Positions 10,102 through 57,582 are shown, numbered from the stretch's first letter. The stretch: DNA of 64,000 nucleotides from Rhodothermales bacterium (GCA_965223485.1 OZ244993.1:1207400-1271399), one strand, 5' to 3'. The notes: generated by a model not told the origin, from the sequence alone. Program-made: numbers and translations.

Positions 10102-10220
10102 CCAGGGTTGGTAGCCGGGCGATGGGGGGATATTGGCGTAACGGTCCGGTCACGCGGCTCTATCGGTTGACGGTGCGGGGGGAGGTATTTGGAGCAGCGT
10201 AGCAAGCCGATCTAAAATTT

Positions 10221-10285
10221 ATTCAGCAAATCTGTTGACAACATAACCGTTGATCCCGTATATTGTCATTCAGCAATTTTGTTGA
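10221..10285 (+). promoter_or_regulatory. pair of 18-nt direct repeats (ATTCAGCAAWYTKTTGA) in the AT-rich region upstream of the ATPase gene
   Basis: 10221-10238 and 10268-10285 match at 16/18. The first copy overlaps a TTGACA hexamer. Confidence 0.35.
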
Positions 10286-10445
10286 ATTAAATGAGGGTTG
10301 TTGCAACTCTCGATGCACTGCCGGGTAAACGGCGAGGACTTTTTGATGGCGATTAGGAGTCGCACACAGTGTGGAAGCGGGTCCGTGACCGCCATAGTCT
10401 CCTGCAAAAGCGCTGCTATGATGCGGCATAATCCGGACACATGCA

Positions 10446-13400
10446 ATGGATGAATCACGCAGGCGCACCATCCGCAAATTCAATCCCGGCACGTTCCAGT
10501 CCGATGAGGAGATCATCAGGCAATTCGTGGTCAGGGAGCGCGAGCTTGGCGCCGTGCTCGATATTATCCGAAGAAACATCAATGCGTTTGTTTGCCAGCC
10601 TGTCCTGATCGCTGCGCCTCGCGGTCAGGGCAAGACCATGCTGCTGGCCCGGGTTGCGGCGGCGTTGAACACCGAGGCCGATCTCTCCAGGCGTCTTTTG
10701 CCGGTCCGGTTCACGGAGGAAAGTCACGAGATATTCAATCTTGAGGACTTCTGGCTCGAGACATTGTTTTACCTTGCGCGGGAGAGCGCCGAGCACGATT
10801 CCGAGCTCGCAAAGGAATTGCAAGAAGCGCGTGCCGATCTGGTCAGGCGGTGGGACGAGGAAGCGCTTGTCGATCACGCCCGCGCCACGGTTCTGGAAGC
10901 TGCGGACCGGTTGGGCAAAAAACTTGTCCTCATGGTCGAAAACATGCAGGACCTCTGCGAAAATGTGGACGACGATTTTGGCCAGCAACTTTGCGGGGCG
11001 CTGCAATCGGAATCGCAGATCATGCTGCTCGCCACCGCTACGAGCCGCTTCGGAGGGTTGAACGACGTGGAGCACCCGTTTTTCGAGTTGTTCCGAACTA
11101 TTGATCTGAAACCGCTGGATACGGAAGAATGCCGCCGCTTGTGGCAAGTGGTCAGCGGAGACGAAGTGAACAGGCGGGATATCAGGCCGCTTGAGATTCT
11201 GACCGGCGGCAGTCCTCGCCTTCTGGTCATCGTCGCCGGGTTTGCCCAGCACCGGTCTTTGAGCCAGTTGATGGAAGAGCTGGTGCAGTTGATCGACGAT
11301 CATACCGAGTATTTCCGCGGTCATCTGGAGGCGCTGGCCAAGACCGAACGCCGGGTGTATCTCGCGGCGATCGATCTTTGGCAGGCGTCAAGCACGGGCG
11401 AGATCGCGACGCGGGCCCGCGTGGACGTTCGGACGGTGTCGGCCCTGCTTGGCCGACTCGTCGACCGGGGCATGGTCCGTGTGGATGGGAGCGGCAAGAA
11501 GCGGCTTTACGCCGCTGCGGAACGTCTTTACAGTATCTACTACAAACTGCGCCGCGAACGAGACGAGGCGGCTGTTGTGAGCGGTCTGATCCATTTTATG
11601 GTTGCGTTTTACAGCGAAGAGGAAATGGCCGAGAGGGTTAAAAAGTTGATTGCAGAGGCGAAGCGATTTCCAGGTATCCGGAAGGGCATTGAACGGGCGA
11701 TTGCCGAAGCGCCGTACATCGGGAGCTTTTTCCCGGGTATTGCGCGGCCAAAGATGGATCGGGTGTTCGTCCTGGATACGGCGTGCGGCAACGAGCGCGT
11801 CGAACGATTGCTCGAAGAGATTGCCGTGATGTTCCAAAAGGCGGAAACGCACAAGAAAGCCGGAGATTTCGCGGCGGCGATTATGGTCTATCGCGAGTTG
11901 ATCATGCGATTCGGCGCCAGTGAAGACCCGGATTTGCAGATGCAGATCGCCCGGGCGTTGTCCGACAAGGGGGATGCGCAAAGGGAACTCGGCGATTTCG
12001 CAACGGCAATTGCGACGTACGAAGAACTGATCGAGCGTTTTGGCGACAGCGAAGCGCCGGAATGCCAGTTTGCGGTTGTTTTGGCGTTGTCCGACAAGGG
12101 GGATATACAGAGGGAGCTTGGCGATTATCCATCGGCGATTGCGACCTATGAAAACTTGATCGAGCGCTCTGGCGACAGCGAAGCGCCGGAATGCTTGTAT
12201 TCGGTTCCCTGGGCATTACTTCACAAGGGGAATATGCACAAGGAACTCGGCGATTTCGCATCGGCGATTGTGTCTTACGAAGCGTTGATCAAGCGCTTTG
12301 GCGCCAGCGATGCACCGGAAAGCCGGTTCCCGCTTGCTTGGGCGTTGTGTCAGAAGGGAGATATGCAAGAGCAACTCGGTGATTTGGAGGGTGCGATTGT
12401 GACCTATGATGAAGTGATTGCATGTTTTGGCGGCAGCGACGCTTCGGAACTTCAGGTGCGCGTAGCCTGGGCGCTGTCTCAAAAGGGAGATATCCACCAG
12501 GAACTTAACGATTTTGATGAGGCGCTTGCGGTTTACGATGAAGTGATCGAGCGCTTTGGCGGTAGCGATGTCCCGGAACTCCAGGCGCTGGTTGCCAGCG
12601 CGTTGTCCGGTAAGGGATATATATTCGGACATCCGTTCGGAGATGATGCCTTGGCGCTTGCGGCCTACGACGAGTTGATTATGCGTTTTGGCGACAGCGA
12701 TGCGCCGGATATTCAGGAGCGGATCGCCTGGGCCTTGCACCAAAAGGGGATTTTTCAAGGGCAGCTTGGGGATTTCATGTCGGCGCTGGTCGTCTATGAC
12801 AAGATGATCGCACGTTTTGGCGGCAGCGAATCGCTTGAGATCCAGGCTTTGGTTGCCTGGACCTTGTTCGAGAAGGGAGATGTCCAACGACAACTTGGAG
12901 ATTATCCATCGTCGATTGCTGCCTGCAATGAAATTGTCATGCGCTTTGGCGATAGTGGTGCACAGGATCTCCAGATGCCGGTTGTTTGCGCGTTGTTCGA
13001 TAAGGGTATGAGACAACTGGAGATGGGGCATGGGGAGGAAGCGCTGCGCACACGTGAGGAGTTTGCCCGGCGATCCGGATCCCTGACCGATTTTTCGAAG
13101 GCAGGCTGCGCACTGCGGGCAATATGGATGCGCCCGGGATCATTACCGATACAAGGCCATCCCGAGATTGCTGCGGATGTATTGCAGTTTGTGTATATGT
13201 TGTTCGTGCCCGGTGAAAGGACAATGGTGGCAATGATGCAGCACATTGTGCTTGATCTGATCGCAGTTGGCGTCCCGGCGCATGAACTTGTCGAGATATT
13301 GTCGAGCGACGCCATGAAGGCCAGCGCGTTGACGCCGCTTGTCATTGCTCTCCTCCAGTATGCTGGCGAAGCGGTTCGGGCGCCTGTGGAAGTCCTTGAA

Positions 13401-13553
13401 GTTGCGGCGGATATCCGGGAGCGGATTGAGGAAAGGATGGCGGGAGGCGTTGGCACTGATTTTCCGCTGTTTCGCGGAACCGGACTCATACCCGGCGTGG
13501 ACCTGAGCGATTCGGCTTCCCCGTCCGACCTCATGGAGGAGGATCGGGAATGA
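10446..13553 (+). CDS. STAND/Arch_ATPase-like NTPase with winged-helix segment, nine 43-aa helical (TPR-like) repeats and a C-terminal helical domain
   Basis: 1035 aa. FVVRERELG lead-in, Walker A APRGQGKT (aa 57-64), Walker-B-like KLVLMVEN (aa 159-166), and a wHTH-like segment (VSALLGRLVDRGMVRVDGSGKKRLY). Repeats start at aa 482, 525, 568, 611, 654, 697, 741, 784 and 827. Confidence 0.8.
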   Translation: MDESRRRTIRKFNPGTFQSDEEIIRQFVVRERELGAVLDIIRRNINAFVCQPVLIAAPRGQGKTMLLARVAAALNTEADLSRRLLPVRFTEESHEIFNLEDFWLETLFYLARESAEHDSELAKELQEARADLVRRWDEEALVDHARATVLEAADRLGKKLVLMVENMQDLCENVDDDFGQQLCGALQSESQIMLLATATSRFGGLNDVEHPFFELFRTIDLKPLDTEECRRLWQVVSGDEVNRRDIRPLEILTGGSPRLLVIVAGFAQHRSLSQLMEELVQLIDDHTEYFRGHLEALAKTERRVYLAAIDLWQASSTGEIATRARVDVRTVSALLGRLVDRGMVRVDGSGKKRLYAAAERLYSIYYKLRRERDEAAVVSGLIHFMVAFYSEEEMAERVKKLIAEAKRFPGIRKGIERAIAEAPYIGSFFPGIARPKMDRVFVLDTACGNERVERLLEEIAVMFQKAETHKKAGDFAAAIMVYRELIMRFGASEDPDLQMQIARALSDKGDAQRELGDFATAIATYEELIERFGDSEAPECQFAVVLALSDKGDIQRELGDYPSAIATYENLIERSGDSEAPECLYSVPWALLHKGNMHKELGDFASAIVSYEALIKRFGASDAPESRFPLAWALCQKGDMQEQLGDLEGAIVTYDEVIACFGGSDASELQVRVAWALSQKGDIHQELNDFDEALAVYDEVIERFGGSDVPELQALVASALSGKGYIFGHPFGDDALALAAYDELIMRFGDSDAPDIQERIAWALHQKGIFQGQLGDFMSALVVYDKMIARFGGSESLEIQALVAWTLFEKGDVQRQLGDYPSSIAACNEIVMRFGDSGAQDLQMPVVCALFDKGMRQLEMGHGEEALRTREEFARRSGSLTDFSKAGCALRAIWMRPGSLPIQGHPEIAADVLQFVYMLFVPGERTMVAMMQHIVLDLIAVGVPAHELVEILSSDAMKASALTPLVIALLQYAGEAVRAPVEVLEVAADIRERIEERMAGGVGTDFPLFRGTGLIPGVDLSDSASPSDLMEEDRE
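11853..13055 (+). repeat. intragenic array of ~129-bp (43-aa) repeats
   Basis: Unit consensus is Y(D/E)E(L/V)I.RFG.S(D/E)AP..Q..VA.AL..KG..Q..LGD...A.. The array lies inside the ATPase CDS. Confidence 0.85.
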
Positions 13554-13666
13554 CGGACGCACGCTTCGAGGGATTGCACTGGAGATCCCTGGGCGGCTTG
13601 CAAGCAGTTGAAAAAGATTTTCCTGATTTTTAGTACGCGTTCCCTGTTAACCGAGCTCTTCGGAGT

Positions 13667-14674
13667 ATGATCGAAAAACCGCCATACGCGATTACAGCGG
13701 ACATTCTTTTCCTCGTTGAACGCATCGGCGAAGCGATCGGCCGGGCGGAGGCAGCGGGCGTCTCGCGCAATGTCCGCCTGCGACGAACCAATCGCATCCG
13801 TACGATCCGGGGCTCTCTGGCTATAGAAGGCAATATCCTCAGCGAGGAGGAAATTTCCTCGATCCTCGACGGCAAGCCCGTTGCCGCCCCGCTGAAAGAT
13901 ATTCAGGAGGCCCGCAACGCTATTAAGGCCTATGACCAATATCGGCAGTGGGATCCCGCCAGCGAGGCCGATCTGCTGCAAGCTCACCGGATCCTGATGG
14001 CCGGATTGCTGGATGCGCCCGGACAGTATCGCCGCACCGGCGTTGGCGTTATGGGTAGTGGGGTAATTCATCACATCGGCCCGCCCGCCGAGTATGTACC
14101 GCAACACATGGCGAATTTGCTGGCGTGGCTTGGCGATGCCGATGAGCACCCGCTCATCGCCAGTTCGGTCTTTCATTACGAATTCGAGTTCATTCACCCT
14201 TTTGAGGATGGCAACGGACGAATGGGGCGGCTTTGGCAGACGCTGATTCTGACCCGCTGGAAATCCCTGTTCGCCAGTATTCCCGTAGAGAGTCTGGTTC
14301 ATGCTCGCCAGGACGATTATTACAGAGCCATCAGGCAGAGTTCGGCGGCGGGAGCGAGTACGTCGTTCATTGAATTCATGCTGGAGATTATTCTGGAGGC
14401 CCTCCGGGCTTCCGGGGTGAGCGACCAAGTAAGCGATCAGGTAAGCGACCAGGTAGCACAGTTGATCGCCGCCTTGCGGACAGGTTCGAAATCCGCTGCT
14501 GAACTTATGGCGGCAATAGGGCTATCGCATCGCCCTACCTTTCGTAAAAACTACCTCCGCCCGGCAATGTCCGCGGGGCTGGTGGAAATGACGCGCCCCG
14601 AATCGCCCACGGCGAAGAACCAGAAGTATCGGTTGACGGTTAGGGGGAGGGGGGTTTTGGAGGCGCAAACGTGA
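13667..14674 (+). CDS. Fic family protein (class II, N-terminal inhibitory motif) with C-terminal wHTH
   Basis: 335 aa with Fic motif HPFEDGNGRMGRLW, inhibitory motif SLAIEG ([ST]xxxE[GN]), and a C-terminal KYRLTVRG-type winged helix. Confidence 0.9.
   Translation: MIEKPPYAITADILFLVERIGEAIGRAEAAGVSRNVRLRRTNRIRTIRGSLAIEGNILSEEEISSILDGKPVAAPLKDIQEARNAIKAYDQYRQWDPASEADLLQAHRILMAGLLDAPGQYRRTGVGVMGSGVIHHIGPPAEYVPQHMANLLAWLGDADEHPLIASSVFHYEFEFIHPFEDGNGRMGRLWQTLILTRWKSLFASIPVESLVHARQDDYYRAIRQSSAAGASTSFIEFMLEIILEALRASGVSDQVSDQVSDQVAQLIAALRTGSKSAAELMAAIGLSHRPTFRKNYLRPAMSAGLVEMTRPESPTAKNQKYRLTVRGRGVLEAQT
14417..14455 (+). repeat. 3 x 12-bp in-frame tandem repeat (VSDQ)3 inside Fic1
   Basis: gtgagcgaccaa / gtaagcgatcag / gtaagcgaccag, located between the Fic core and the C-terminal wHTH. 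Confidence 0.9.
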
Positions 14675-14888
14675 GTCAGGGCTAAGTGTGGCGTGCCAGA
14701 GCAGAATCGGTACCGGCTGCTCAGTGTAACCTGATTCCGGATGCCTGATTCATTGATTTCTGTTCAAACTTATGCTATTCTTGCGGCATGACATGTCTTG
14801 GAGTTGACTGCGATTACCATAACTTGCGCTACTTCGAGATGACCCCTGAATGTGCGCAGACCTTCATCATGAAAGGAGGAGGTACTCT

Positions 14889-15101
14889 ATGAAAATAAAG
14901 ATCGAGAAGGAGTGGTGTCTCCGAATGGCGGAGATTGAGGAGGATGCCGAGATCGGAGTTGGCTGGGACTCCCTTGATTACGTTCTGACAACCCTTGCGC
15001 CATTTCCACCAGCATCGGGAGATGATGATCCATCAGAAAGCGATAGTTCGCTTTCGTGTGCGACAGAACGGGATGAGCGTGCAGGTACACGCGGGTGCTG
15101 A
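14889..15101 (+). CDS. small hypothetical protein (possibly truncated)
   Basis: GGAGG sits 7 nt upstream of the ATG. The first ~30 aa (MKIKIEKEWCLRMAEIEEDAEIGVG) look protein-like; the rest is low complexity. Confidence 0.3.
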   Translation: MKIKIEKEWCLRMAEIEEDAEIGVGWDSLDYVLTTLAPFPPASGDDDPSESDSSLSCATERDERAGTRGC

Positions 15102-15119
15102 CTTTGATGATCTTGTAGA

Positions 15120-15239
15120 TCACGTTCCATACACAAACTCCTCCCCGATCTCCCATCTCCCCTTCTCGCAGAAAACCGGAACGGTCCGGCGCGCAGTTGC
15201 GTTGGTGGTAGCAGTTGCCTTACTCACGAGGATGCCGCG
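15120..15239 (-). pseudogene. orphan 3' fragment of a Fic-associated C-terminal HTH (paralog of the Fic2 3' end)
   Basis: It encodes ..ATARRTVPVFCEKGRWEIGEEFVYGT*, compared with Fic2 ..NAARRQTIPAFRERGVWKIGEEFVYGARDA*. 15127-15151 matches 18996-19020 at 24/25 nt. No Fic core lies upstream. Confidence 0.7.
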
Positions 15240-15391
15240 GGTCTTGGGCGCTGTGGCGTTGTATATCGGTGTTGAACATCCGCTTCTACAGAATTCTTTT
15301 TTCTCGTCATTTGCATTGCAATCCTCGTTCAAAAAGATTACTATAAGTAGCGTAACGATTCTTGTGCCGGGAGCTTTCAAGGGGAGAGATA

Positions 15392-17137
15392 ATGAGTGAG
15401 GTCCGTCAACTACGCTCCGTAAAGCGTTATCGTACTACCACCGAAGAAAAGGCCGCAGGGGCTACCTACACGCCTAAAGTCCTTGCCGATTTTGTTGCGC
15501 GGAAGGTTGTCCAGCTTGCCGGCGAACTGCCCACCCATCGCCGGCTCCGCGTTCTCGACCCTGCTATCGGCCATGGAGAACTGCTAATCAGCTTGCTCGA
15601 GGGCTTAGCCGGCCAGTCGAACCTGACCATCGAAGTGCATGGTTTCGAGACGAATCGCGAGGCGCTTGCTACCGCAACGGCGCGAATCGAGCGACAATTC
15701 CCGAACGCTTCGCTTCATTTCAGGCCAGACAACTTCCTCGAGTTCGTCCTAAAGCACTGCGGATACGGCGGTCAAAGCAACCTGTTCAATTCCGCCGCCC
15801 CCGAAACCTATGATCTGATTATTGCTAATCCCCCCTATGTCCGCACCCAGATCATGGGGGCCGCACAGGCGCAGCTTATGGCCAGACAGTTCGGTCTGTC
15901 CGGTCGCGTGGATATGTATTACGCCTTCATGCTGGGTATATCTCACGTACTCGAGCCCAAGGGCATTGCCGGGATCATCGTCTCCAACCGCTTCATGACC
16001 ACCAGGTCCGGGGCCGCTGTTCGGCAAGCCTTGCTGAAGCGTTTCGACATTCGGCATGTATGGGATTTGGGCGATACGAAGCTATTCGATGCGGCAGTGC
16101 TGCCCGCCGTTTTGCTCGTCGAGAACAAGAATGGCCGTACATCGAAGTCCCCGGCCTTCACGTCAATCTATCAAACCACCGACCCGGTGCGCCAACGCGC
16201 CACGGACCCGATCAGCGCCCTGACCGGAGAAGGCGTCGTCGAGATAGACGACGGGCGACGTTTCCATGTCCGGCATGGCAAGCTGGATACAAGCGGCACG
16301 TTCAATGGCGTTTGGCGGATTGCCACCGAAGCTGTCGATGCCTGGTTAGCCACAGTGGAAGCTCATAGTTTGGGCACGTTCCGTGACATCGGCAAAATCC
16401 GTGTCGGCGTCAAGACCTGCGCCGACAAGGTGTTCGTCCAAAACGACTGGAAGAGCATGTCTGAGGCTGACCGTCCCGAATTGCTCAAACCGCTCACAAC
16501 GCACCACATTGCCCGTCGCTTCAAGCCACTGATTGCGGAGAAGCCAACCCGAATTCTCTACCCGCACGAGGTTTCGCACGGCCGCCGTCGGGCCGTCGAT
16601 CTTGCGCAATATCCCCGCAGCAAGACCTATCTCGACACGCATCGCGCCACGCTCGAAGGCCGCCAATATGTTACCGAGGCAGGTCGCGAGTGGTACGAAA
16701 TCTGGGTGCCCCAGGACCCCGATGCCTGGCAGCGGCCCAAACTCGTTTTCCGGGACATTGCCGACGAACCCACGTTCTGGATCGATCTGGACGGATCCGT
16801 CGTCAACGGCGACTGTTACTGGCTCACCTGTCAGAATCCGGAACAGACCGACTTGTTATGGCTCGCAGCGGCCGTCGGTAATTCGACGTTCATTGAGCGA
16901 TTCTACGATTACCGCTTCCATAACAAGCTCTATGCGGGTCGCCGTCGCTTCATCACCCAGTATGTCGAGAAATTCCCGATCCCCGACCCCGAAACCTCTC
17001 TCGGCAGGAAGATTATCGCTCAGGCCAAGCGGATATACGAATGCATCTCGTTCCCGGATGTCGTCCATCTCCAAAAGGAACTGGACGGCATGGTTTGGGA
17101 GTCGTTCGGTTTAGTCGTCGAAGAAATCGGCGGGTAG
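15392..17137 (+). CDS. N6-adenine DNA methyltransferase (type II, gamma-class, Eco57I/TaqI-like)
   Basis: Motif I VLDPAIGHGELL, motif IV IIANPPYVRTQ. AGGGGAGAG precedes the ATG at 15392. Confidence 0.9.
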   Translation: MSEVRQLRSVKRYRTTTEEKAAGATYTPKVLADFVARKVVQLAGELPTHRRLRVLDPAIGHGELLISLLEGLAGQSNLTIEVHGFETNREALATATARIERQFPNASLHFRPDNFLEFVLKHCGYGGQSNLFNSAAPETYDLIIANPPYVRTQIMGAAQAQLMARQFGLSGRVDMYYAFMLGISHVLEPKGIAGIIVSNRFMTTRSGAAVRQALLKRFDIRHVWDLGDTKLFDAAVLPAVLLVENKNGRTSKSPAFTSIYQTTDPVRQRATDPISALTGEGVVEIDDGRRFHVRHGKLDTSGTFNGVWRIATEAVDAWLATVEAHSLGTFRDIGKIRVGVKTCADKVFVQNDWKSMSEADRPELLKPLTTHHIARRFKPLIAEKPTRILYPHEVSHGRRRAVDLAQYPRSKTYLDTHRATLEGRQYVTEAGREWYEIWVPQDPDAWQRPKLVFRDIADEPTFWIDLDGSVVNGDCYWLTCQNPEQTDLLWLAAAVGNSTFIERFYDYRFHNKLYAGRRRFITQYVEKFPIPDPETSLGRKIIAQAKRIYECISFPDVVHLQKELDGMVWESFGLVVEEIGG

Positions 17138-18004
17138 CGGAATCTGTATTTTCCAGTTCGACAAATTGCCCTGAAACTGCGGGAATCGTGAGAAAAACTT
17201 CGCACCCGTTGTTAGGAAGAAGTGTGTCAGCGTGACAATTTCTCCATCCGTCGTTGCATAGAACAGAGCATAGCGAACATCGCAGTGCCGGATATGCTGG
17301 CCACTAATCTTCGGCACATCAAGGGCTTCTTCGCTATCCGGACACACAAGGCCGAGGTCTATCGTCGGCGATGTCTGTAATTTCACTTCAAGAAGCTGAT
17401 GTAGTATATCCGGGAATTGCCCATCGTCCCGGTAATCGGCGTAGCCCAAACGCTGGCATACCAACCGGTGCAAGGCTGCCCCCCGGTTGCGTTCCTGGTC
17501 ATGGCCTGCATCTGGAAAGCTTTCGCCGATCAGGGCCTGTAACCCTTCAAAAATATGCTCGATTGGCAATAGTTTTCCTGCTTCAGGATAGCTGACCGGA
17601 TCCGATGTAATAGATTCAAGGTTGGTTTTGGGCCTGACAACGTGTCGGAGACGCTCCGTATCCTCTGTAGCAATTAGCTCCACGCTGCTTTCGCTAGGAA
17701 TGATCCGGGCCTGATATTTATGAGTTAGTGCGCCCGTGGTATCAAATTGCGCCAGGACATTTCCAGTGACGACTTTCACCTTAGTGATGGTGTCATTCTT
17801 GCCAAGTCGGATGATCACGTAGCGCCGTACAAGGGTAATCTCCTCATTCCAAATCTGTAAATTGTTGGATTTCTGGATGTAGGTGTCAAAAAGTTGGCCC
17901 GGAAACCGAGGGTGTGTTTTCTTGAAACTTGACGGCGCCGGATAACCGAGTGCTTGACAAATCCGTTCCTTGTACGAATCCGGTCCATTGTCGTTAGTTA
18001 CCAT
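17111..18004 (-). CDS. type II restriction endonuclease (PD-ExK)
   Basis: 297 aa with FPDILHQLLEVKLQ, a PD..(E)xK pattern. It converges on and overlaps the methyltransferase by 27 nt, and its start overlaps the C-protein gene. Confidence 0.65.
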   Translation of the reverse strand: MVTNDNGPDSYKERICQALGYPAPSSFKKTHPRFPGQLFDTYIQKSNNLQIWNEEITLVRRYVIIRLGKNDTITKVKVVTGNVLAQFDTTGALTHKYQARIIPSESSVELIATEDTERLRHVVRPKTNLESITSDPVSYPEAGKLLPIEHIFEGLQALIGESFPDAGHDQERNRGAALHRLVCQRLGYADYRDDGQFPDILHQLLEVKLQTSPTIDLGLVCPDSEEALDVPKISGQHIRHCDVRYALFYATTDGEIVTLTHFFLTTGAKFFSRFPQFQGNLSNWKIQIPLPADFFDD

Positions 18005-18278
18005 CTTCGAACGCTTTCCTGGTCAAGAGCTTTGGGACATCCGTTCCAAGTGCCGCAGCCAGAATCTCCAGCGTACTTAGCGTGGCATTCCTTTCTCCTC
18101 TCTCCAGCGAACCCACATAAGTCCGGTGGAGACTGCATATTTCGGCAAATTTTTCCTGGGATATGTCCCTGGACTTTCTGTAAGCGCGGATATTGTCTGC
18201 AAGAATTTGTCTCAACTCCGCGCTTGGAGTTCTAAGTTTTTTGTTGCCCACTTCCCTCTGGTAGTGTTCTGAAAACAC
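17994..18278 (-). CDS. HTH XRE-family controller (C) protein of the RM system
   Basis: 94 aa with LRQILADNIRAYRKSRDISQEKFAEICSLHRTYVGSLERGERNATLSTLEILAAAL. Its 3' end overlaps the endonuclease start by 11 nt, the classic C-R operon arrangement. Confidence 0.8.
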   Translation of the reverse strand: MFSEHYQREVGNKKLRTPSAELRQILADNIRAYRKSRDISQEKFAEICSLHRTYVGSLERGERNATLSTLEILAAALGTDVPKLLTRKAFEDGN

Positions 18279-18306
18279 GAATATTCAACAGGTTATTGAA
18301 GATGAT

Positions 18307-18324
18307 GCCTATAAGTCTACACAC
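18307..18324 (-). promoter_or_regulatory. candidate C-box operator
   Basis: The minus strand reads GTGTGTAGACTTATAGGC ~30-45 nt upstream of the C-gene start, resembling the TGTGACTTATAGTC-type C-boxes of C.AhdI/C.Esp1396I. Confidence 0.4.
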
Positions 18325-18472
18325 AAAGAGTAGCATAGCGGCTCGGCGCCACAGGTTGTACCGCATCCAATTCTGTCCATGCCAGCGCCAATGTTCCATG
18401 CAGTGCGCAACGTAATGGGTATGTTCCGTAGCGTATATCCTTTTCTCTTGCCCTCATCGTTTGAACCACAGA

Positions 18473-19879: not shown

Positions 19880-20171
19880 GCCGTTACAACAATAAATTCA
19901 CTATTTATTGGGTAATATACGTGAATATAGTGCATAAAAAGGGTGCTATTCACTAATATGTTGCGGTGCATGAGAGGTTTCCAAGACAGCCAACCCGGAT
20001 GCCTGACTTACAGAGACTCCCGAGTTTGCCTGCACGCTTGCTATGTGGACCGCATGCTCTTGCAGACCCGCTTCCCTTATATCCTGCATGCGCCCGCAGC
20101 ATGCAGTGCGTACATTCCAGGCATCCGCCCCCCGGTACGCAAAACCACGACAAAACCCGCCTCATAACGCC

Positions 20172-50389: not shown

Positions 50390-51987
50390 TGTACGCCTTT
50401 CTGATCGAACTGCGACTCTATTACCGGAACAGGATGGCCCTGATCTACGGCTATCTTTTCCCGCTGATCTTTCTGGTTGCCTTCCTTGTGTTGTACCGGC
50501 ACGAACCGGCGCCGCTCGTGAACCACATGGGGGAACTCCTTACCGTGACGGCCCTTGGCGGGGCCTGCTTCGGCCTGCCCACCTCCATGGTGGGCGAGCG
50601 GGAGCGGGGAGTCTGGCGCCGGTACCGGGCGACGCCCGTTTCCACGTGGCGCCTGGTGCTGACGACGGTTGCGGCCCGGTACCTGGTCCTGCTTTCCGCC
50701 GCGCTTCTTCAGATTGTGCCGGCCATGCTTCTTGGCATGCCGTTTCCTGAGCATATTGCCGGGCTGTGGGTCGCCTTCACGTTCGTGTCTTTCGCCTTTC
50801 TGGGGCTGGGCCTTGTCATCGCCATGCTCGCCGACACGGTGCCCGCCGTACAGGCGCTGGGGCAGTCCATTTTCCTGCCGATGCTGATCATTGGCGGGGT
50901 GGCGGTGCGTCTCGAAAGCCTGCCCGAATGGGCGCAGCACCTGTCCGCCTTTTTTCCCGGTCGCTATGCGGTCGAGGCGATACAGGTTACCGTGAACGGA
51001 AGCGGACTGGGCGCCGCGGGCTTCAGCTTGCTGGCCCTCCTTCTGATTGGCGCCGCCGGCTGCCTTGCCTCGGCGAAGATGTTTCGATGGGATACGCGGG
51101 AGCGAGGCGGTACGCGGCGCGGCAAGGTATGGGCGGGCGCTGCCCTCGCGGCATGGGTGCTGGTCGGCGTGCTGGCGGAAGGCACGGGCCGCGCTCTGCC
51201 GCATGGACGATTGCCTGCCGACGGCGTATCGTCGCTGACCGATGCGCTTCGTGCCCCTGGTGCAGAAACGGACAACCCCTCTAACGTGTATGGGACGGAA
51301 GCGGATTCGGTTACGTTCGCGGAGAACGTTGCGGATTCTGCCGGTGTCGGGGCCTTGTCGGCGGATTCGGCGCCGGAACCGTCAGACCCGCAAAGCGACG
51401 CAGATACTCCGGCCGGGGAAACCGCCGATGCCGTATCCGAAGAGGTTGTCGAGGCGCCACCGCCTCCCCCGCCCATCGACTACCCCGATTCCTGGGAAGA
51501 AGTGACGATGGAGGACATCGACCGGGACATCCGGTTCGATGCGCTTCCCTACGATCAGGGCCTGGAGGCCCCGGTGGCCGCGCTGGACGAGCCCGTGTAT
51601 CCGGATATCGAGGATACGATACAATGCGTCCTCGACGATCTGGAGGTATGGCCGCCGGCCTGGACGGCGGACCCTGTGCAGCGGGCGCGCAATGTGCTGT
51701 TCGTGGCGGCGGTCCCGGACATGTACCAGATGAGCGGGATCGAGCGGTGGGTACCGCACGCCGTATTCCAGCATCTGGCGAATGCGCATCCCGAAGAGGA
51801 ATTGATCAAGGTGCTCTACTGGATCGCCGCAAATCCCTACGAGGGGGAAGTTTTCGCCGCAAGTCGACTTACGGATATGTGCCTGCGGCTCGGCGGCCCC
51901 GACGACACTGCGATGCTACAGCAGCGGACCGGGTGGTACGCGGCCAAGCTACTGGGCCGGATCACCGGGCATATTGAGGTGAGGTAG
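50386..51987 (+). CDS. ABC-2 type permease fused to a ~280-aa C-terminal domain of unknown function
   Basis: ATGA start/stop overlap with the ATPase gene. About 6 TM segments (aa 1-250), then an acidic low-complexity linker and a conserved-looking tail (..VLYWIAANPYEGEVF..GRITGHIEVR). Confidence 0.75.
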   Translation: MMYAFLIELRLYYRNRMALIYGYLFPLIFLVAFLVLYRHEPAPLVNHMGELLTVTALGGACFGLPTSMVGERERGVWRRYRATPVSTWRLVLTTVAARYLVLLSAALLQIVPAMLLGMPFPEHIAGLWVAFTFVSFAFLGLGLVIAMLADTVPAVQALGQSIFLPMLIIGGVAVRLESLPEWAQHLSAFFPGRYAVEAIQVTVNGSGLGAAGFSLLALLLIGAAGCLASAKMFRWDTRERGGTRRGKVWAGAALAAWVLVGVLAEGTGRALPHGRLPADGVSSLTDALRAPGAETDNPSNVYGTEADSVTFAENVADSAGVGALSADSAPEPSDPQSDADTPAGETADAVSEEVVEAPPPPPPIDYPDSWEEVTMEDIDRDIRFDALPYDQGLEAPVAALDEPVYPDIEDTIQCVLDDLEVWPPAWTADPVQRARNVLFVAAVPDMYQMSGIERWVPHAVFQHLANAHPEEELIKVLYWIAANPYEGEVFAASRLTDMCLRLGGPDDTAMLQQRTGWYAAKLLGRITGHIEVR

Positions 51988-52250
51988 GCAATTTTGTCCG
52001 GCGCGTTTCGTTTATTTAAGCCTGTTCCGCCTCATTTTTTCCGGCACGCTCCATCTGATGCACCTCCCAAATGAGCACACCGTTTTCTTTTTGGGGACTA
52101 CAGGTCCGCCTGCTATCCGTTCGGAGGGCCCTGCTTTTGGCCTTGGCCGGGTTGTTGGCCGCGCCTGGCGTGACCTATGCCGAGACGCATGGCGTGCCTG
52201 TACTGGCCAACCGCCTTAAGGGGCCTGACGTTATAGTGGAGCCCGGTGAT
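51745..52250 (+). repeat. left copy of a diverged tandem duplication (3' end of the permease gene + intergenic region + 5' end of the protease gene)
   Basis: Aligns with 54219-55015 at roughly 90-95% identity, apart from a 291-bp in-frame deletion equivalent to 54640-54930. Confidence 0.9.
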
Positions 52251-52277
52251 TGTAAAACGACAGCAAGTTGGCACTGA
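52071..52277 (+). pseudogene. truncated duplicate of the S8 protease 5' end, running into the element's TIR
   Basis: MSTPFSFWGLQVRLL..GVTYAETHGVPVLANRL..VEPGD, then TIR-encoded residues and a stop. Confidence 0.85.
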
Positions 52278-52356
52278 AACGACACGAATTTGGCACTAAA
52301 TAACTGAGAGATCACAGTTAGCCTTCTAAATGGCCAGGGTTATGCCGTTTTGTCAC
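52251..52356 (+). repeat. left terminal inverted repeat
   Basis: TGTAAAACGACAGCAAGTTGGCACTGAAACGACACGAATTTGGCACTAAATAACTGAG..TATGCCGTTTTGTCAC. Confidence 0.85.
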
Positions 52357-52384
52357 GCTGCCCGGCCTCATTGAAGCCCCTTAG

Positions 52385-52402
52385 ATGTTTGCACGCAAAC
52401 AT
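52385..52402. repeat. palindrome motif ATGTTTGCACGCAAACAT, copy 2 (inverted flank orientation)
   Basis: With the copy at 53892 it forms an inner inverted-repeat pair around the transposase and small gene. Confidence 0.7.
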
Positions 52403-52483
52403 CGGCTGCACGTATCTGGTGCTCGATGCGGAGTTCAGTAATTTTCACTCCGACTATCTGATAAAGGGCAAGTAGCGGGTACG

Positions 52484-52517
52484 AAAAAAGCCCCGCCAGA
52501 AACGAATCCGGCGGGGC
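52484..52517 (-). terminator. rho-independent terminator after the small membrane protein gene
   Basis: On the minus strand: stem GCCCCGCC / GGCGGGGC (8 bp) followed by TTTTTT, ~45 nt after the stop at 52563. Confidence 0.6.
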
Positions 52518-52562
52518 CTTCCGCATGACACGGCTGAACGGTACGAGAACGCCCTGTCGATG

Positions 52563-52943
52563 CTACTCCTGGCTTCGTTTCTCACGCCGACGCTGCACCT
52601 TGCATTGGATATACCCGATTGAGCCCAGCGCCACCGACCCGTAAACGTTCCACAGCGGAGGCACGTCCATAACGAGCCCGACGGTCATAAAGTACTGCGT
52701 CATCTTTATACGCTCCGAGCCGGTTTGCCTGAAGCATCCGGGCCGCTCGGCCTCGCCCTCCGAAATAACCGGCGCATCAAGCTCCGTCGGCACCACGGCA
52801 GGTAGAGGAAGTTTTTCCAGGGCGAGCACCTCTACCGCCGCAGGCTTTTCGGGCGTCTTGTCGTCATCCGTGGCTGCGGCAGGCGCCGCCACGGACAAGG
52901 CGAGGATGAAAAGGAGTGTGTGTTTCATCGTGGTTTGCCTCAC
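52563..52943 (-). CDS. small secreted/membrane-anchored hypothetical protein (passenger gene of the element)
   Basis: Signal peptide MKHTLLFILALSVAAPAAA, a C-terminal hydrophobic segment and a basic tail. Confidence 0.55.
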   Translation of the reverse strand: MRQTTMKHTLLFILALSVAAPAAATDDDKTPEKPAAVEVLALEKLPLPAVVPTELDAPVISEGEAERPGCFRQTGSERIKMTQYFMTVGLVMDVPPLWNVYGSVALGSIGYIQCKVQRRREKRSQE

Positions 52944-53044
52944 AACGTTTTGTTAATCACAACGGGCGACGCATCCCGGGGGTCAGGGGCAGGACTTCCC
53001 TATATTAGTACATCCTAAATAAAAAAGTCAAGGACGACCCTGAT

Positions 53045-53804
53045 TTATAAAATAAGGTCATTGTACATGAGGCGTTTGCCATCGAGCCCTAGGAGGATTT
53101 TCGCCATCTTGTCAAGCGTTGACAGCTTGCGCAGGTTATGGCGCCCGGCGAACTCGTTGATGTAGCGGTGCAGGTGCTTGCGGCTCATGTGGTGGTAGGC
53201 GCCTTTGTACGCCCGCTTGAGCAGGGCCCAGAAGCTCTCTATGCCGTTGGTGTGGGCGTCTCCCTTCACGTACTGGTACGCGGAGTGGTTTGTAGCGGCC
53301 CGCCAGCGGCTTGTAGGAAACGTTATCGTCGGTATAGAGCGTAGCGCCCGGTTTTGCCCGACGAGAAACAAAAGCGGAAAAGTGCAGCGCATCGACCTCT
53401 ACAGGCCCGCGAAAAATGTCCACATCGCCGGCGAAAAACTCACGCAGGCGCTGCAAGAAAAACCACGCGGATTTTTGCGTCATCCCGAGCGCCTTCGCGA
53501 GCATAGGCGAGGATATGCCTTTGGCCCGCGTGGAGGCCAGGTAGATACCGATGGCCCATTGCCGCAAGGATAGATTGCTGTCCTCCATTACCGTGCCCTT
53601 GCGCACGGAGAAGTATCCGCGGCAGTCGCGGCAGCGGTACGGCATCGAGCGGTGCGAGGGTGTCCGGGAGAAATTCATCGAGCCGCACGTAGGGCACGCC
53701 GGCCCAACGGGCCAGCGCACACTCTCCATCCACCGCCGGGAAAACTCCTCGTCCCGAAACAAGCGGAACAAAGCTAAAATGGTTACTCCTCCTGTGGCAA
53801 CCAT
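53045..53804 (-). pseudogene. IS1595-family (ISXO2-like) transposase, internally deleted and frameshifted
   Basis: The N-terminal zinc ribbon CPTCGS..YRCRDCRGYFSVRKGT and HTH lie in ORF 53136..53804. The C-terminal DDE end ([40 protein letters not shown]) lies in a different frame (53045..53392). The central catalytic part is largely missing. Confidence 0.8.
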
Positions 53805-53891
53805 TGTATATAATTCCCATTAAAATAGGGGATGGTCCTGGCTTTGCGAACAAGCGGAGTATATCCCTTATAGGGATCCGAAACACGCTCA

Positions 53892-53909
53892 ATGTTTGCG
53901 CGCCAACAT
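53892..53909. repeat. palindrome motif ATGTTTGCGCGCCAACAT, copy 3
   Basis: Its flanks match the copy at 7346. Confidence 0.7.
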
Positions 53910-54110
53910 AAGATGCCGGTGTGCGCGCCAGACCCTTGAACGGCTTATGCGGTGTAGCTATGCGCGAGACGCTCTACGCCGACGTCGATCTGACCGACGC
54001 AGTCATGGATATGGTAAAGCAGGGTCATTATTCGGGCGTCACGGTCGCGATTTTCGGGCCGACTCATCCGAGCAATCCGAAGCCGGTCGATCACTACCTG
54101 CCACACCGGA

Positions 54111-54218
54111 GTGACAAAACGGCATAGCATTGGTCATTTGCAAGGCTAACTGTTTTCCGCCTCAGTTATTTAGTGCCAGGCCCGTGTCGTTTTAGTGCCA
54201 ATTTGCTGTCGTTTTACA
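54111..54218 (-). repeat. right terminal inverted repeat
   Basis: Its reverse complement aligns with 52251-52356. Confidence 0.85.
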
Positions 54219-55015
54219 CGGTGGGTGCCGCACGCCGTATTCCAGCATCTGGCGAATGCGCATCCCGAAGAGGAATTGATCAAGGTGCTCTACTGGATCG
54301 CCGCAAATCCCCACGAGGGGGAAGTTTTCGCCGCAAGTCGACTTACGGACCTGTGCCTGCAGATCGGCGGTCCCGACGACATTTTAATGCTCCAGCAGCG
54401 GACCGGGTGGTACGCGGCCAAGCTACTGGGCCGGATCACCGGGCATATTGAGGTGAGGTAGGCAATTTTGTCTGGCGCGTTTCGTTTATTTAAGCCTGTT
54501 CCGCCTCATTTTTTCCGGCACGCTCCATCTCATGCACCTCCCAAATGAGCACACCGTTTTCTTTTTGGGGACTACAGGCCCGCCTGCTTTACGTTCGGAG
54601 GGCCCTGCTTTTGGCCCTGACCGGGTTCCTGGCCGCGCCTTTGGCCCTGGCCTAGGAGCAGCCGGCCTATGAGCCCCACGTCGTCGTCGTGCAGTTTGAG
54701 CCGGGCATTGTCATCGGGGAAGGAGTTGCCAAGGCAGGCTTGCAGGCTTTTGACCGCATGGCTTCCGCATTCGGCGTGCACACGATCGAGCGCGTGTTTC
54801 CGTTTCTGGATCACGTGCAGCCCACGCCCGAAACCGCGCGGAATCTCGCAGCGCTTCGCCGCACCTACTATGTCCGGTACAGCGCCGACGATGATCCCGG
54901 AGACGTAGCGAAGGCCCTGATGGACGTGCCTGGCGTGACCTATGCCGAGACGCATGCCGTGCCCGTACTGGCCAGCCGCCTTATGGGGTCTGACGTTATA
55001 GTGGAGCCCGATGAT
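54219..55015 (+). repeat. right copy of the tandem duplication
   Basis: It starts exactly at the element's right end with a duplicate of permease codons (ORF 54195..54461 ends ..GRITGHIEVR*), then the intergenic region and the protease 5' end. Confidence 0.9.
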
Positions 55016-57481
55016 TCTTTATTCAGTGCCCAGACGTATCTCAGGCATATGCGTCTGCCCGAAGCCTGGGACATCGTCAAGGGAGAAGACGGCGCCCCGC
55101 CGGTGGTTATCGCCATAACGGATTTGGGCGGAGATTGGCGACACGAGGATCTTCTTGCGAATGTTTGGACCAATGCGAATGAGATTCCAGGCAACGGTAT
55201 AGACGACGATAACAACGGTTTCATTGACGATGTGCACGGGGTGAATCTACTCAATAGAGATGACGCCGACAACGATCCGTATACTCCGGGGGGCATCCCG
55301 CATGGCACACACGTCGCGGGCGCAGCCAGTGCCGTGACCGACAATAGCGCCGGTGTTGCCGGAGCGGCGTGGAATGCCCAGCTCATGCATATTAGTGGCC
55401 TCTACGCAGGCATCCTGTATGCCGCCGCCAACGGCGCCGACATCATAAATGCAAGTTGGGGTACGATAGGGTTCATCGGGGGGGGTAGAACTGAAGCGCA
55501 AGTCCTGGACCTCGCAACGGAGATGGGCGCCCTTGTGGTAACGTCAGCAGGCAATGACGGCAGGAATATCGATGACTTCGCATACTATCCTTCCGGTCAT
55601 CCTCGCGTTCTTACTGTCGGCGCCACGGCTAAAGATTCACGCATAAAGGCGGGATTTTCGAATTACGGCAAGGGAGTCGATGTCTTTGCCCCTGGCGTAG
55701 ACATCATTACTACAGTACCGGACGGCGAATACACGCTTTCCGTAGACGGCACGTCATACGCATCTCCTCTGGTAAGTGGTGTGGCCGCATTGGTGAAGAC
55801 CCGATATCCGGACATTTCGCCGGATGCATTGCGGGAGCAAATTCGTCTTTCGAGCGAGAATATGGATGCGGAGAATCCGGGGTATGCAGGACTGCTGGGA
55901 CGCGGGTATGTCAATGCCGAGGCGGCCCTGCAAACGCCTGTGCTTCCAGCCATTCGTGTTAAGCGGTCGTCATGGACCGATGCCGCCGGCGACCGCCAGA
56001 TTGCTTCAGGAGAGGAGGTAACGATCACGGCTACGGTAGTCAATTACCTGGCCGACGCCCGGCAGCTGAGCGTAGGTCTGACGGCGGCCGAATCGTACCC
56101 GTATATAGATATAACAACGGCCGAGCAAACGGTAGGCCGCCTGGCCCGTGGCGATTCCACCGAGGTTACGTTTCGGTTCACGGTAGCCCCCGATGCGCCC
56201 GTAAATCGCAGGGTGCGATTCTATACCCGTATTCGGGACGGAGCATTCGTAGACGAGCCCGACCAATTCGCTTTTGGCATAAACAGGAGGCTCGATATCG
56301 TGCACGAGGCGCTCAGCGCACTATATGTCTCCACCGGCGGCGACAACTGGACAAACAATTCCGGCTGGGACATCACCAGGGTGCCTGCGCCGAGCGAATT
56401 GTACAACTGGTTTGGGATATCCGTGGCACAGGGCTGGGTAACTTTTCTCCGATTGGACAACAACAACCTTTCCGGTACGCTACCGACCGAACTGGGCAAT
56501 CTCGCGCAGTTGCAAGAGCTGGATCTGTGGCGCAATACCCTGACGGGGTCGATCCCGACCGAGCTGGGCAACCTCTCGCAATTGCAACGGCTGAATCTGT
56601 ACGACAATTCACTTTCCGGGGCGATTCCCGGCGAATTGGGCAATCTCTCGAAATTGCAACAGCTGGATCTGACGGGTAATTCGCTTACCGGGGCGATCCC
56701 CGGCGAATTCGGCAATCTCTCCGAACTGCAAGAGCTGAATCTGTCGCGCAACGCCTTGACGGGCAGGCTGCCGAGGAGTTTTATGCAGTTGGCGAATCTG
56801 CAGCAACTGTCTTTTGGCGGCCAGGACCTCTGCGCGCCAGCGGATGATGCGTTCCAGGCATGGCTCGGCAGCATCCTGATAACAAGTGGTCCTACCTGTA
56901 GTGGAATCCATTTTGCAGACAACGTGCCCGACCAATCTTTTGCGCACGCGCAGCCCATTGCCCCACTCGTCTTGCCCGAAGCTATTGGGGGCGCATCGCC
57001 GATTGACTATACGTTGACGCCCGCACTGCCGGAAGCATTGGCCTTTGACAAAGCGATGCGCACTATCAGCGGGACGCCGACGGTAGTCACGCCGGCCACA
57101 CCCTATACGTACAAGGCCACCGATGCGGACGGATCCACTGACAGCCTGACCTTTAGCATCGAGGTGATTTTTCCGGTCAGTGCTGAGGATGAATCGTTGC
57201 CGCAAGCGTTAGTTTTGCACGGCAACTATCCCAATCCCTTCCGGCATTCCACACGTCTGATGATTGATCTTCCGTGGCCCGCCCGTGTGACGGTTGAGGT
57301 GATGGATGTGGTGGGCCGTCGTGTATTTACAGTCCCTTCGGTTGATTTGGCGCCCGGATGGCAACGCGGCATAGACCTGAGTGGAGCTTCGCTGTCCTCG
57401 GGGCTATACCTGTACCGGGTGCATGCGTCATCGCCACAAGGCAGTGCCGTGCACGTGGGGCGCTTCGTGCGTATCCGATAA
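54689..57481 (+). CDS. S8 subtilisin-like serine protease with LRR array, Ig-like domain and T9SS C-terminal domain. The signal-peptide exon (54545-54652) is cut off by an in-frame TAG at 54653
   Basis: Triad contexts AITDLGGDW, HGTHVAGAAS and GTSYASPLVSGVAAL. Plant-type LRRs L.G.IP.ELGNLS.LQ.L.L. T9SS tail LHGNYPNPFRHSTRLMIDLP..SGLYLYRVHA. Confidence 0.8.
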   Translation: MQFEPGIVIGEGVAKAGLQAFDRMASAFGVHTIERVFPFLDHVQPTPETARNLAALRRTYYVRYSADDDPGDVAKALMDVPGVTYAETHAVPVLASRLMGSDVIVEPDDSLFSAQTYLRHMRLPEAWDIVKGEDGAPPVVIAITDLGGDWRHEDLLANVWTNANEIPGNGIDDDNNGFIDDVHGVNLLNRDDADNDPYTPGGIPHGTHVAGAASAVTDNSAGVAGAAWNAQLMHISGLYAGILYAAANGADIINASWGTIGFIGGGRTEAQVLDLATEMGALVVTSAGNDGRNIDDFAYYPSGHPRVLTVGATAKDSRIKAGFSNYGKGVDVFAPGVDIITTVPDGEYTLSVDGTSYASPLVSGVAALVKTRYPDISPDALREQIRLSSENMDAENPGYAGLLGRGYVNAEAALQTPVLPAIRVKRSSWTDAAGDRQIASGEEVTITATVVNYLADARQLSVGLTAAESYPYIDITTAEQTVGRLARGDSTEVTFRFTVAPDAPVNRRVRFYTRIRDGAFVDEPDQFAFGINRRLDIVHEALSALYVSTGGDNWTNNSGWDITRVPAPSELYNWFGISVAQGWVTFLRLDNNNLSGTLPTELGNLAQLQELDLWRNTLTGSIPTELGNLSQLQRLNLYDNSLSGAIPGELGNLSKLQQLDLTGNSLTGAIPGEFGNLSELQELNLSRNALTGRLPRSFMQLANLQQLSFGGQDLCAPADDAFQAWLGSILITSGPTCSGIHFADNVPDQSFAHAQPIAPLVLPEAIGGASPIDYTLTPALPEALAFDKAMRTISGTPTVVTPATPYTYKATDADGSTDSLTFSIEVIFPVSAEDESLPQALVLHGNYPNPFRHSTRLMIDLPWPARVTVEVMDVVGRRVFTVPSVDLAPGWQRGIDLSGASLSSGLYLYRVHASSPQGSAVHVGRFVRIR

Positions 57482-57511
57482 AGATCCGTATCGGGGCTAT
57501 GCGGATATAGA

Positions 57512-57582
57512 TACGCGGCCAAACTGCGGGGCCGGATCACCGGGCATATTGAGGTGGAATAGGATTCCTCGTCCGGTGCGTT
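57512..57582 (+). repeat. third copy of the ~71-nt permease 3'-end/terminus segment
   Basis: TACGCGGCCAARCT.C.GGGCCGGATCACCGGGCATATTGAGGTG..TAGG....GTCCGG.GCGTT also occurs at 51937-52007 and 54411-54481. Confidence 0.8.

Follow-up and report, generated by a model that had tools for sequence, protein, structure and literature searches.

The subject of this analysis is a 64-kb window (the whole stretch of DNA analysed, 64,000 nucleotides (nt)) of the chromosome of a Rhodothermales bacterium (GCA_965223485.1, OZ244993.1:1207400-1271399), in which three pairs of duplicated gene 3' ends lie beside accessory DNA. We think, at a probability of roughly 55%, that these duplicated ends were left behind by several ordinary and mutually unrelated rearrangements at two loci with fast gene turnover, and are not the traces of one integration system. 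The first of these, locus A, lies between a DinB-family gene and an Exo_endo_phos gene and carries pairs 1 and 2; the second, locus B, lies between an ABC-2 permease gene and a sulfatase gene and carries pair 3. In a preliminary description of the window, an ATPase-Fic1 module, a restriction-modification (RM) block and a protease gene had each been described as a cassette flanked by the duplicated 3' end of a neighbouring gene, as would result from a site-specific integration that restores its target. The three pairs do exist, at 10161 and 14627 (Fic1 end), 15127 and 18996 (Fic2 end) and 54411 and 57512 (permease end), with unequal statistical support, and they appear to record true recombination scars at gene ends; it is the single target-restoring 3'-end integration process that did not hold. 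A mechanism common to all three pairs is not supported by a comparison with about 20 related loci.

The comparison covered the window with its 10-kb flanks and about 20 related Rhodothermales loci (labelled L0xx below). These were found by a genome scan with the permease, which led to syntenic loci in Rhodothermales metagenome-assembled genomes, several of them complete chromosomes, and locus A in relatives was reached through homologues of Exo_endo_phos, of the methyltransferase and of Fic2. Gene identities were taken from Pfam and PADLOC, and the mechanistic steps proposed below are inferred from the comparison. Repeats were sought by a self-BLAST of the window with a reporting threshold of E<=1e-3, and by a 3'-end scan in which the terminal 75 nt of each of 33 genes, extended by 25 nt of flank, were aligned with the whole window and the best local score was recorded. 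The self-BLAST returned a permease-end pair (57512-57582 versus 51937-52007, E=3e-13) and the Fic2 pair (15127-15191 versus 18996-19060, E=9e-8), and the Fic1 pair (19/21 nt) is absent from its output at this threshold. In the 3'-end scan, scores of 95, 28 and 16 were obtained for permease, Fic2 and Fic1, with 11.5-15 for ordinary genes among the 33. Pairs 2 and 3 are clearly non-random and pair 1 is marginal on statistics alone, which agrees with its earlier ranking as the weakest of the three.

Locus A extends from the DinB-family gene (9610-10101, +; Pfam DinB 7e-28), a conserved left anchor that is syntenic in L017, L018, L020, L022, L029 and L033, to the Exo_endo_phos gene (20043-21104, +; Pfam), a conserved right anchor that is syntenic in all relatives examined. 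Between both genes, seven distinct architectures were found. L018, L022 and L023 have the order DinB-Fic1-Exo, in which the start codon of Fic1 and the stop of DinB overlap (ATGA) and Exo_endo_phos comes directly next; L020 has DinB-Fic2; L017 has DinB, a 224-nt Fic1 5' fragment and Fic2; L024 has a Fic1 C-terminal piece, ATPase, AAA_15, ThiF, Multi_ubiq and Fic2; L031 has ATPase-RM-Fic2; and L033 has DinB-ATPase-Fic1-IS256-TIR-DUF3644-Fic2. The ATPase is not at its window position in L018 and L022, where DinB adjoins Fic1. Between or beside the Fic genes, relatives therefore carry nothing, the ATPase, a ubiquitin-like system, a TIR protein with IS256, or the RM unit. PADLOC assigns the defence-type genes to SoFic, PDC-S04, MTase_II, REase_II and Ppl, and the Pfam families in the cargo of the relatives include TIR_2, ThiF/Multi_ubiq, AAA_15/21 and SLFN_AlbA_2. 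Both marks of a defence hotspot, variable content between conserved flanks and a cargo rich in known or candidate defence genes, were thus found. Locus A behaves as a defence hotspot, and its brackets are two convergent genes of the Fic family, the SoFic-type Fic1 and the PDC-S04-type Fic2.

The gap between DinB and Fic1 measures 3.56 kb in the window (10102-13665). It consists of a 59-nt spacer 3' of DinB (10102-10160) that is common to L020 and L033, of a 42-nt segment at 10161-10202 (+) that forms the left copy of pair 1, of an operator-like region, and of a STAND-like ATPase gene (10446-13553, +) with AAA_16, winged helix and TPR repeats of 129-nt units, as judged from Pfam and the repeat structure. 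Next comes the intact SoFic-type gene Fic1b (13667-14674, +; Pfam Fic and Fic-like_C; PADLOC SoFic 8e-46), whose 3' end at 14627-14674 is the right copy. The copies match at 19/21 nt. The left one corresponds to the last 14 codons and the stop of a Fic1 gene and reads YRLTVRGEVFGAA in frame, compared with YRLTVRGRGVLEAQT at the end of Fic1, with a stop nearly as far away as there. Against the Fic1 tail of L024 the agreement is 20/20 nt, and in both genomes the upstream region of a homologous ATPase comes next, so that the left copy is a real gene-end remnant. In L024, the Fic1 C-terminal piece is followed by three repeats of about 85 nt, by the same operator and by the homologous ATPase; the remnant is also kept in L029 and L033. 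This order, which L024 retains, indicates that 10161-10202 is the stump of a deleted Fic1 copy (Fic1a) that once preceded the ATPase.

Fic1b itself is 88% identical at the nucleotide level to the DinB-adjacent Fic1 of L022, which equals the divergence of the flanking genes, and it is therefore the orthologue. As no Fic1 gene body lies upstream of 10161, the left copy cannot be an attachment (att) site of the kind that had been proposed. Homology with L020 stops exactly at the start of the remnant, and the window and L020 have the same left breakpoint after DinB and different right breakpoints. Around the ATPase insert (10102-13665), no terminal inverted repeats or target-site duplication were seen, and the ATGA at both of its ends is simply a stop/start overlap. 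Other Fic1 fragments occur in relatives, namely the 224-nt 5' piece of L017 and an internal 361-nt deletion in L016, and this mixture of 5' pieces, internal deletions and 3' pieces is the pattern of random scars.

Pair 2 joins the 3' end of Fic2b (18980-19879, -; Pfam Fic; PADLOC candidate family PDC-S04, 4e-35), with the right copy at 18980-19094, to a stranded Fic2-type 3' fragment at 15120-15222 (-), which was recognised by sequence comparison and is found only in the window, L029 and L016. The segments 15127-15219 and 18996-19088 are 72% identical over 93 nt (E=9e-8 for 65 nt), and in translation 20/31 residues are identical. The fragment is a chimera, in which the final 25 nt agree fully with Fic2b (25/25) and the next 74 nt match at only 42 positions (57%). 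Up to and including the stop, 33/34 of its last nt match the native Fic2 end of L033. The mismatches of the divergent arm are spread over the three codon positions (10/8/14), and the arm is therefore not a coding allele. Since the Fic2 family is extremely conserved, with a protein identity of 80-86% across phyla and the tail consensus ...GVWKIGxEFVY(G/R)T followed by the stop, the arm would instead be non-coding decay or foreign sequence. The abrupt boundary appears to be the footprint of a recombination or conversion within the last Fic2 codons, and the stump at 15120 is best read as the remainder of a second Fic2-type copy inside the defence island.

At the right repeat, Fic2b and about 30 nt of its downstream flank are collinear with L033 (flank 20-25/40, a value reached by <=1/5000 shuffles). 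This flank is homologous to the native one of L033, and hence there is no junction at the right repeat. The Fic2 of L033 is 94% identical to that of the window, and the DNA between Fic1 and Fic2 there consists of IS256, a TIR protein gene and DUF3644, without the Fic2 fragment. As a further candidate, a crossover exactly within the 25-nt Fic2 block, with a new gene end encoded by the incoming element, was considered; it is weakened by the flank of Fic2b, which still resembles the native flank of L033.

The RM unit (15297-18337), of type II and about 3 kb in size, comprises a methyltransferase (15392-17137, +; PADLOC MTase_II 9e-193), a restriction enzyme (17111-18004, -; PADLOC REase_II 1e-121) and a controller protein. 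It has identical, sharp ends in the window, in L031:849-4051 and in L030:7908-11369, and these copies stand in different contexts, the ATPase/Fic2 interval in L031 and a thyA...folA island in L030. The repeats of pair 2 lie 75 nt and about 640 nt outside its ends. Since the unit keeps its own ends in other contexts, apart from the repeats, the repeats do not bound it, and the RM block as a repeat-bounded cassette was rejected on the basis of these three contexts. No flanking repeats or target duplication were found at the ends of the RM unit. In the window, a 162-nt deletion took the start of the restriction enzyme gene and the controller gene; the enzyme is without the first ~73 of 359 profile positions and is 54 residues shorter than that of L031, and the methyltransferase is probably orphaned. 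Right of the unit lies a truncated ParA-like (AAA_31) gene (18473-18868, -) that has lost 596 nt compared with L016, where the DNA between the RM unit and Fic2 holds only the ParA-like gene and no integrase remnant. At the Fic2 locus, relatives carry different cargo and no empty site. The earlier statement that the repeats flank the cassettes is thus upheld for the protease, as described below, and fails for pair 1, where the left copy has no gene body, and for pair 2, where the ends of the RM unit lie inside the repeats.

Several other observations concern the genes of locus A. The homologues of Fic2 (P0241-P0360) show their 80-86% identity in very different phyla (Gemmatimonadota, Opitutae) with large genomes of 4-9 Mb, which indicates a recent wide horizontal spread of a nearly invariant protein. 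Upstream of the ATPase, two palindromic operator-like motifs, TTCAGCAAATCTGTTGA and TTCAGCAATTTTGTTGAA, can be read in the sequence at 10220-10290; the palindrome, TTCAxCAAATnTGTTGA in general form, is also present at L016:3785-3814 (after Fic1), at L020:~7630-7660 (where the ATPase is absent) and at L024:~330-400, and it is probably an operator. The ATPase repeats (11821-13032) form at least nine tandem 129-nt units (43 aa, TPR-like) with 64-76% identity. Compared with L016, the stretch from inside the ATPase to the Fic1 5' end (10613-13881) is 84% identical and the sequence further right about 95%, which suggests that the ATPase evolves fast or that its allele was replaced. A small open reading frame (ORF; 14850-15101, +) without family match lies between Fic1b and the Fic2 fragment; it is present only in L016 and L029 and is absent from L018 and L022. 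A small antitoxin, AS1, is known downstream of SoFic in E. coli (PMC12249575), and the ORF, directly 3' of the SoFic-type Fic1, is a candidate parallel. In L024, the interval 3384-8300 between ATPase and Fic2 contains an AAA_15/21 ATPase, the genes ThiF and Multi_ubiq, which form a set for ubiquitin-like conjugation, and a short piece of an rve-type transposase.

In locus B, the end of the ABC-2 permease gene (49585-51987, +; Pfam) exists in three copies, the true end t1 (51937-52007), a copy at 54411-54481, and t3 (57512-57582, +), which follows 30 nt after the protease stop. The protease had been described as flanked by the copies at 54411 and 57512; both are present, and the true permease end had been missed. 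t3 is 80% identical to 54411-54481 over 71 nt and 84% identical to t1 over 73 nt. The middle copy sits inside a larger duplication. Copy 1 of this duplication (51745-52251, +) comprises the last 81 permease codons, the intergenic sequence and the protease 5' end, and has a 277-nt internal deletion; it is repeated at 54219-54640 (95%) and 54918-55016 (91%), within copy 2 (54219-55016, +), in which a dead 3' piece of the permease (54219-54461) holds the middle copy. The two direct copies meet precisely at an insertion sequence (IS), an IS1595-like element of 1,967 bp (52252-54218; Pfam Zn_ribbon_IS1595) with terminal inverted repeats (52251-52356 and 54111-54218; 84% over 108 nt) and a frameshifted IS1595-type transposase gene (53045-53804, -), which is the arrangement expected of an IS-mediated segmental duplication. 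The copy at 54411 is therefore part of an IS-linked segmental duplication. A local origin by duplication or deletion, which had been named in advance as the outcome that would speak against integration, thus applies to this copy and, through the deleted gene body, to pair 1. Of 422 sites compared between both copies, 21 differ, and their pattern is mosaic relative to the other genomes, so either the event is old or a second allele was involved; a foreign allele may have been the source of copy 2. No clean short target-site duplication is visible at the element.

The protease gene (54545-57481, +; Pfam), a subtilase (S8) with LRR and T9SS sorting domain, is also present in L002, L003, L004, L027 and L028. 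The left boundary of t3 is the same in the window, L002, L003 and L028, and in L004 and L027 only the first ~18-20 nt at the position of t3 are similar. As the boundary is common to L002, L003 and L028, t3 must be old. To the right of t3, the sequence of L002, L003 and L028 resembles that to the right of the permease stop in L009, which has no protease and only 235 bp from permease to sulfatase, so that in form an occupied and an empty site stand side by side. A neighbour-joining tree of permease and sulfatase from L002, L003, L004, L009, L028 and the window gave ((((L002,L028),L003),L009),(L004,window)), and since L009 is nested among protease-bearing genomes, its protease loss is secondary. 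Most simply, this loss would have occurred by recombination between t1 and t3. L009 as a pre-insertion empty site is contradicted by the tree, and the empty-site comparison that had been proposed as a test of integration consequently yields only a derived case. The distant L012 has the left end of the cassette and an 89-nt protease 3' remnant, without t3, which suggests that the protease is older than t3 at this locus. The ATT variant that t1 and t3 have in common in the window does not speak for a concerted evolution of the two, as the t3 of L028 also reads ATT and its t1 reads ATC.

Locus B as a whole shows five distinct states between the permease and the sulfatase gene (57727-59196, +; Pfam and synteny), which is the conserved right anchor of this hotspot. 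Apart from the protease, the interval is occupied in L007 by a lone SoFic gene, in L006 and L008 by SoFic together with Ppl and a Schlafen-like gene, and in L005 by 928 bp of other sequence. When metagenomes were scanned with the permease-end core, the only matches were the two orthologous loci L027 and L028, and no new cargo came to light at this site.

Some further details of this locus may be added. The protease gene of the window has an in-frame TAG at 54653-54655 (codon 37, just past the signal peptide) where relatives have CAG, and the protease is probably inactive or made without signal peptide from a GTG at 54689. The repeat that brackets the protease in L004 is another one, a terminator-like 41-nt hairpin with a T-run (12462-12502); three tandem 221-nt units (L004:15660-16351) come next, and then a second partial protease 3' copy (17307-18038). 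The IS1595-like element of the window also contains an ORF with a signal peptide (52563-52943), and a 37-nt match (89%) connects its positions 53880-53915 with 7334-7370, before the catalase-peroxidase gene katG. At 7334-7370 the synteny with L018 breaks, the left flank being inverted there, and the match may be an IS-related remnant at a rearrangement breakpoint.

The following course of events would account for these observations under the reading that we prefer, that is, unrelated rearrangements in two fast-turnover loci. At locus A, content would have been exchanged between lineages by homologous and illegitimate recombination, and microhomology deletions would then have left fragments of the bracket genes; the 42-nt Fic1 stump at 10161 would be the rest of a Fic1 copy ahead of the ATPase, the 100-nt Fic2 stump at 15120 the rest of a second Fic2 copy, and the RM unit a separate mobile unit with its own ends. 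At locus B, the protease would be old and repeatedly lost. One copy of the permease end would stem from the 0.5/0.8-kb duplication joined by the IS1595-like element, t3 would be a long direct repeat of 52-73 nt formed before the species diverged, and recombination between t1 and t3 would later have cut out the protease precisely in L009. A general decay is seen in this genome, with three deletions in katG, the nonsense codon in the protease gene and the truncated restriction enzyme and ParA-like genes.

The main rival is a recurrent insertion by a long-duplication or Campbell-type route that operates repeatedly in this lineage, and we regard it as rather unlikely, if clearly the best of the alternatives. 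It would fit with the bracketing of all three inserts by long direct repeats that span a stop codon, as has been reported for RM systems without mobility genes (PMC2853133), with the sequence to the right of t3 in L002 and L003, which equals that to the right of the permease stop in L009, with the native stop context kept by the Fic2 fragment (the 33/34 nt shared with L033), and with the ParA-like gene beside the RM unit, which suggests a plasmid ancestry. However, the ends of the RM unit differ from those of the repeats, the Fic2 repeats are with 72% identity no fresh target duplication, and the collinearity of Fic2b and its flank with L033 leaves no junction on that side. At locus B, the empty L009 is derived and not ancestral, L012 indicates a protease older than t3, and for the IS case an ordinary unequal crossing-over of two IS copies is explanation enough. 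Taken by themselves, the protease repeat and the Fic2 fragment may still reflect a Campbell-type or long-target-duplication event.

Less probable still is the explanation nearest to the preliminary description, in which integrative elements would have entered at the 3' ends of Fic2 and the permease and left the repeats as attL and attR, by means of a tyrosine or serine recombinase that was lost or acts in trans. The Fic2 fragment, with its short identical block at the gene end and its divergent arm, is built like a typical att site that imitates a gene end, the boundary of t3 is constant across species, and the GC content, about 0.60-0.65 in the window, falls to 0.50-0.59 over 10-20 kb. Yet the constant boundary of t3 is explained by common descent, and pair 1 is excluded as an att site by its missing gene body; the repeat is an exact insert end with an intact gene body adjoining for t1/t3, and not for pairs 1 and 2. 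In a search with Pfam and PADLOC of all ORFs of the three cassettes and of 20-30 further large ORFs of the window, no integrase, recombinase or remnant of one was found, nor was one seen in the counterparts of the cassettes in relatives, and the earlier statement that no intact integrase accompanies the cassettes is confirmed for the cassettes, their vicinity and the other large ORFs searched; the sole recombinase-type match in the cassettes is the degraded IS1595 transposase. The window contains no tRNA genes. The search for a shared core sequence that had been proposed for the three pairs found none, as cross-pair alignment scores of 5-10 correspond to background, and exact matches of the three repeat cores are absent from 2.9 million viral contigs. 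Moreover, the protease "element" is a single ancestral gene without mobility functions in six genomes, and no ancestral empty site with a single repeat copy was found in the relatives.

A broader variant, to which we give slightly less credence than to the att sites, would be a recurrent, chromosome-wide insertion and removal of single genes or small gene sets at resident stop codons, via direct duplications of 30-800 nt and without a recombinase in cis. Such a process may have given rise to the chimeric Fic2 stump, to the protease repeat and to the duplication on both sides of the IS; if real, it would be a general "insertion with long target duplication" that moves non-RM cargo, too. Finally, that pair 1 is a chance similarity and a remnant of nothing is highly improbable and was ruled out: 64 kb should contain several exact 14-mer matches by chance, the local score of 16 exceeds the background maximum of 15 by very little and BLAST did not report the pair, but the L024 match with its ATPase upstream region, the reading frame with the stop at nearly the Fic1 distance, and the conservation in L029 and L033 decide against chance.

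Some points weigh against the reading of unrelated ordinary rearrangements. The shift from 25/25 to 42/74 matches in the Fic2 fragment is not predicted by the simple decay of a duplicate and needs an extra recombination or conversion event. The left breakpoint that the window shares with L020 could reflect a preferred junction. A simple insertion would leave t3 unexplained if the protease was there before it, which L012 suggests. The contigs of L016, L029 and L033 come from low-coverage (2-4x) long-read assemblies, whose base-level detail is unreliable, and a recombinase acting in trans from outside the window and its flanks is possible.

Outside the two hotspots, the window has some features of its own. 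Left of locus A lies a degraded catalase-peroxidase gene (7370-9268, +; Pfam). Aligned with L017 and L018, the region 7370-9527 lacks about 188, 237 and 207 nt at ~8777, 8839 and 9063, the aligned blocks on both sides of these gaps overlap by 4-10 nt, and about 105 extra nt are found near 7800-7895; with a Pfam match confined to residues 272-470 of a 632-aa ORF, the gene looks like a pseudogene. Right of locus A, the relatives L016, L019 and L022 carry other genes between Exo_endo_phos and AP_endonuc_2, which makes this interval a third variable spot, and a WD40 protein of 752 aa (21510-23768) is built of tandem 126-nt units with 80-86% identity. Inverted matches of 72-77% between 34481-34707 and 48200-48426 and between 33771-33987 and 48911-49127 are probably paralogous genes.

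Overall, what is found here is ordinary hotspot turnover of kinds already known. If our reading is true, its value is descriptive, as it adds two gene-turnover hotspots in uncultured Rhodothermales, one of them bracketed by Fic genes, as well as a clean case of a type II RM unit of 3 kb that keeps the same ends at three genomic locations, and an old, long direct repeat through which one species precisely lost a gene. For automated island finders it carries a caution, since stranded gene ends beside accessory DNA can be scars of deletion or recombination and not att sites.

Among the known systems, the insertion with long target duplication (Nobusato et al. 2000, Gene 259:99; Furuta, Abe and Kobayashi 2010, PMC2853133) involves inserts of <20 kb between direct repeats of >30 bp that often lie over a stop codon, without mobility genes (PMC2853133). 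The protease insert is similar in its size of about 3.0 kb, in its repeats of 52-73 nt, in having the protease as the only gene, and in that t1 and t3 both align with the single copy in the insert-free L009. It differs in that the cargo is a secreted protease and not an RM system, and in that the insert-free genome is a secondary deletion, whereas the RM unit of the window is not bounded by repeats and the repeats of the window are old and diverged (80-84%) instead of nearly identical. The protease repeat and the chimeric Fic2 stump would be modest further cases of this kind, with no route to solving a mechanism that has been open since 2000.

Integrative elements that target gene 3' ends likewise place a duplicated gene end beside accessory DNA, and the identical block and divergent arm of the Fic2 fragment resemble them; unlike such elements, the inserts here are single genes or mosaics with no integrase and no common core, the repeats are not the ends of mobile units, and one "att" copy is without its gene. 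With segmental duplications that arise by unequal crossing-over between IS copies, locus B shares the single IS1595-like element at the joint of the duplication; unlike in the standard case, its copies have diverged by 5% in a mosaic pattern, and a clean target-site duplication is not visible.

Core defence hotspots and islands between conserved genes are known from cDHS1 of Pseudomonas aeruginosa (PMC10250203) and from the defence island repertoire of E. coli (PMC10121019). Unlike these, the brackets of locus A are themselves defence-type genes, the SoFic-like Fic1 and the PDC-S04-like Fic2, and not housekeeping genes, stumps of the bracket genes are stranded inside the island, and the lineage belongs to Rhodothermales known only from metagenome-assembled genomes. 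Like them, the locus has conserved flanks around a variable defence cargo of low GC content that differs between close relatives, and it has no consistent signature of mobile elements, the exchange being thought to proceed via homologous recombination in the flanks.

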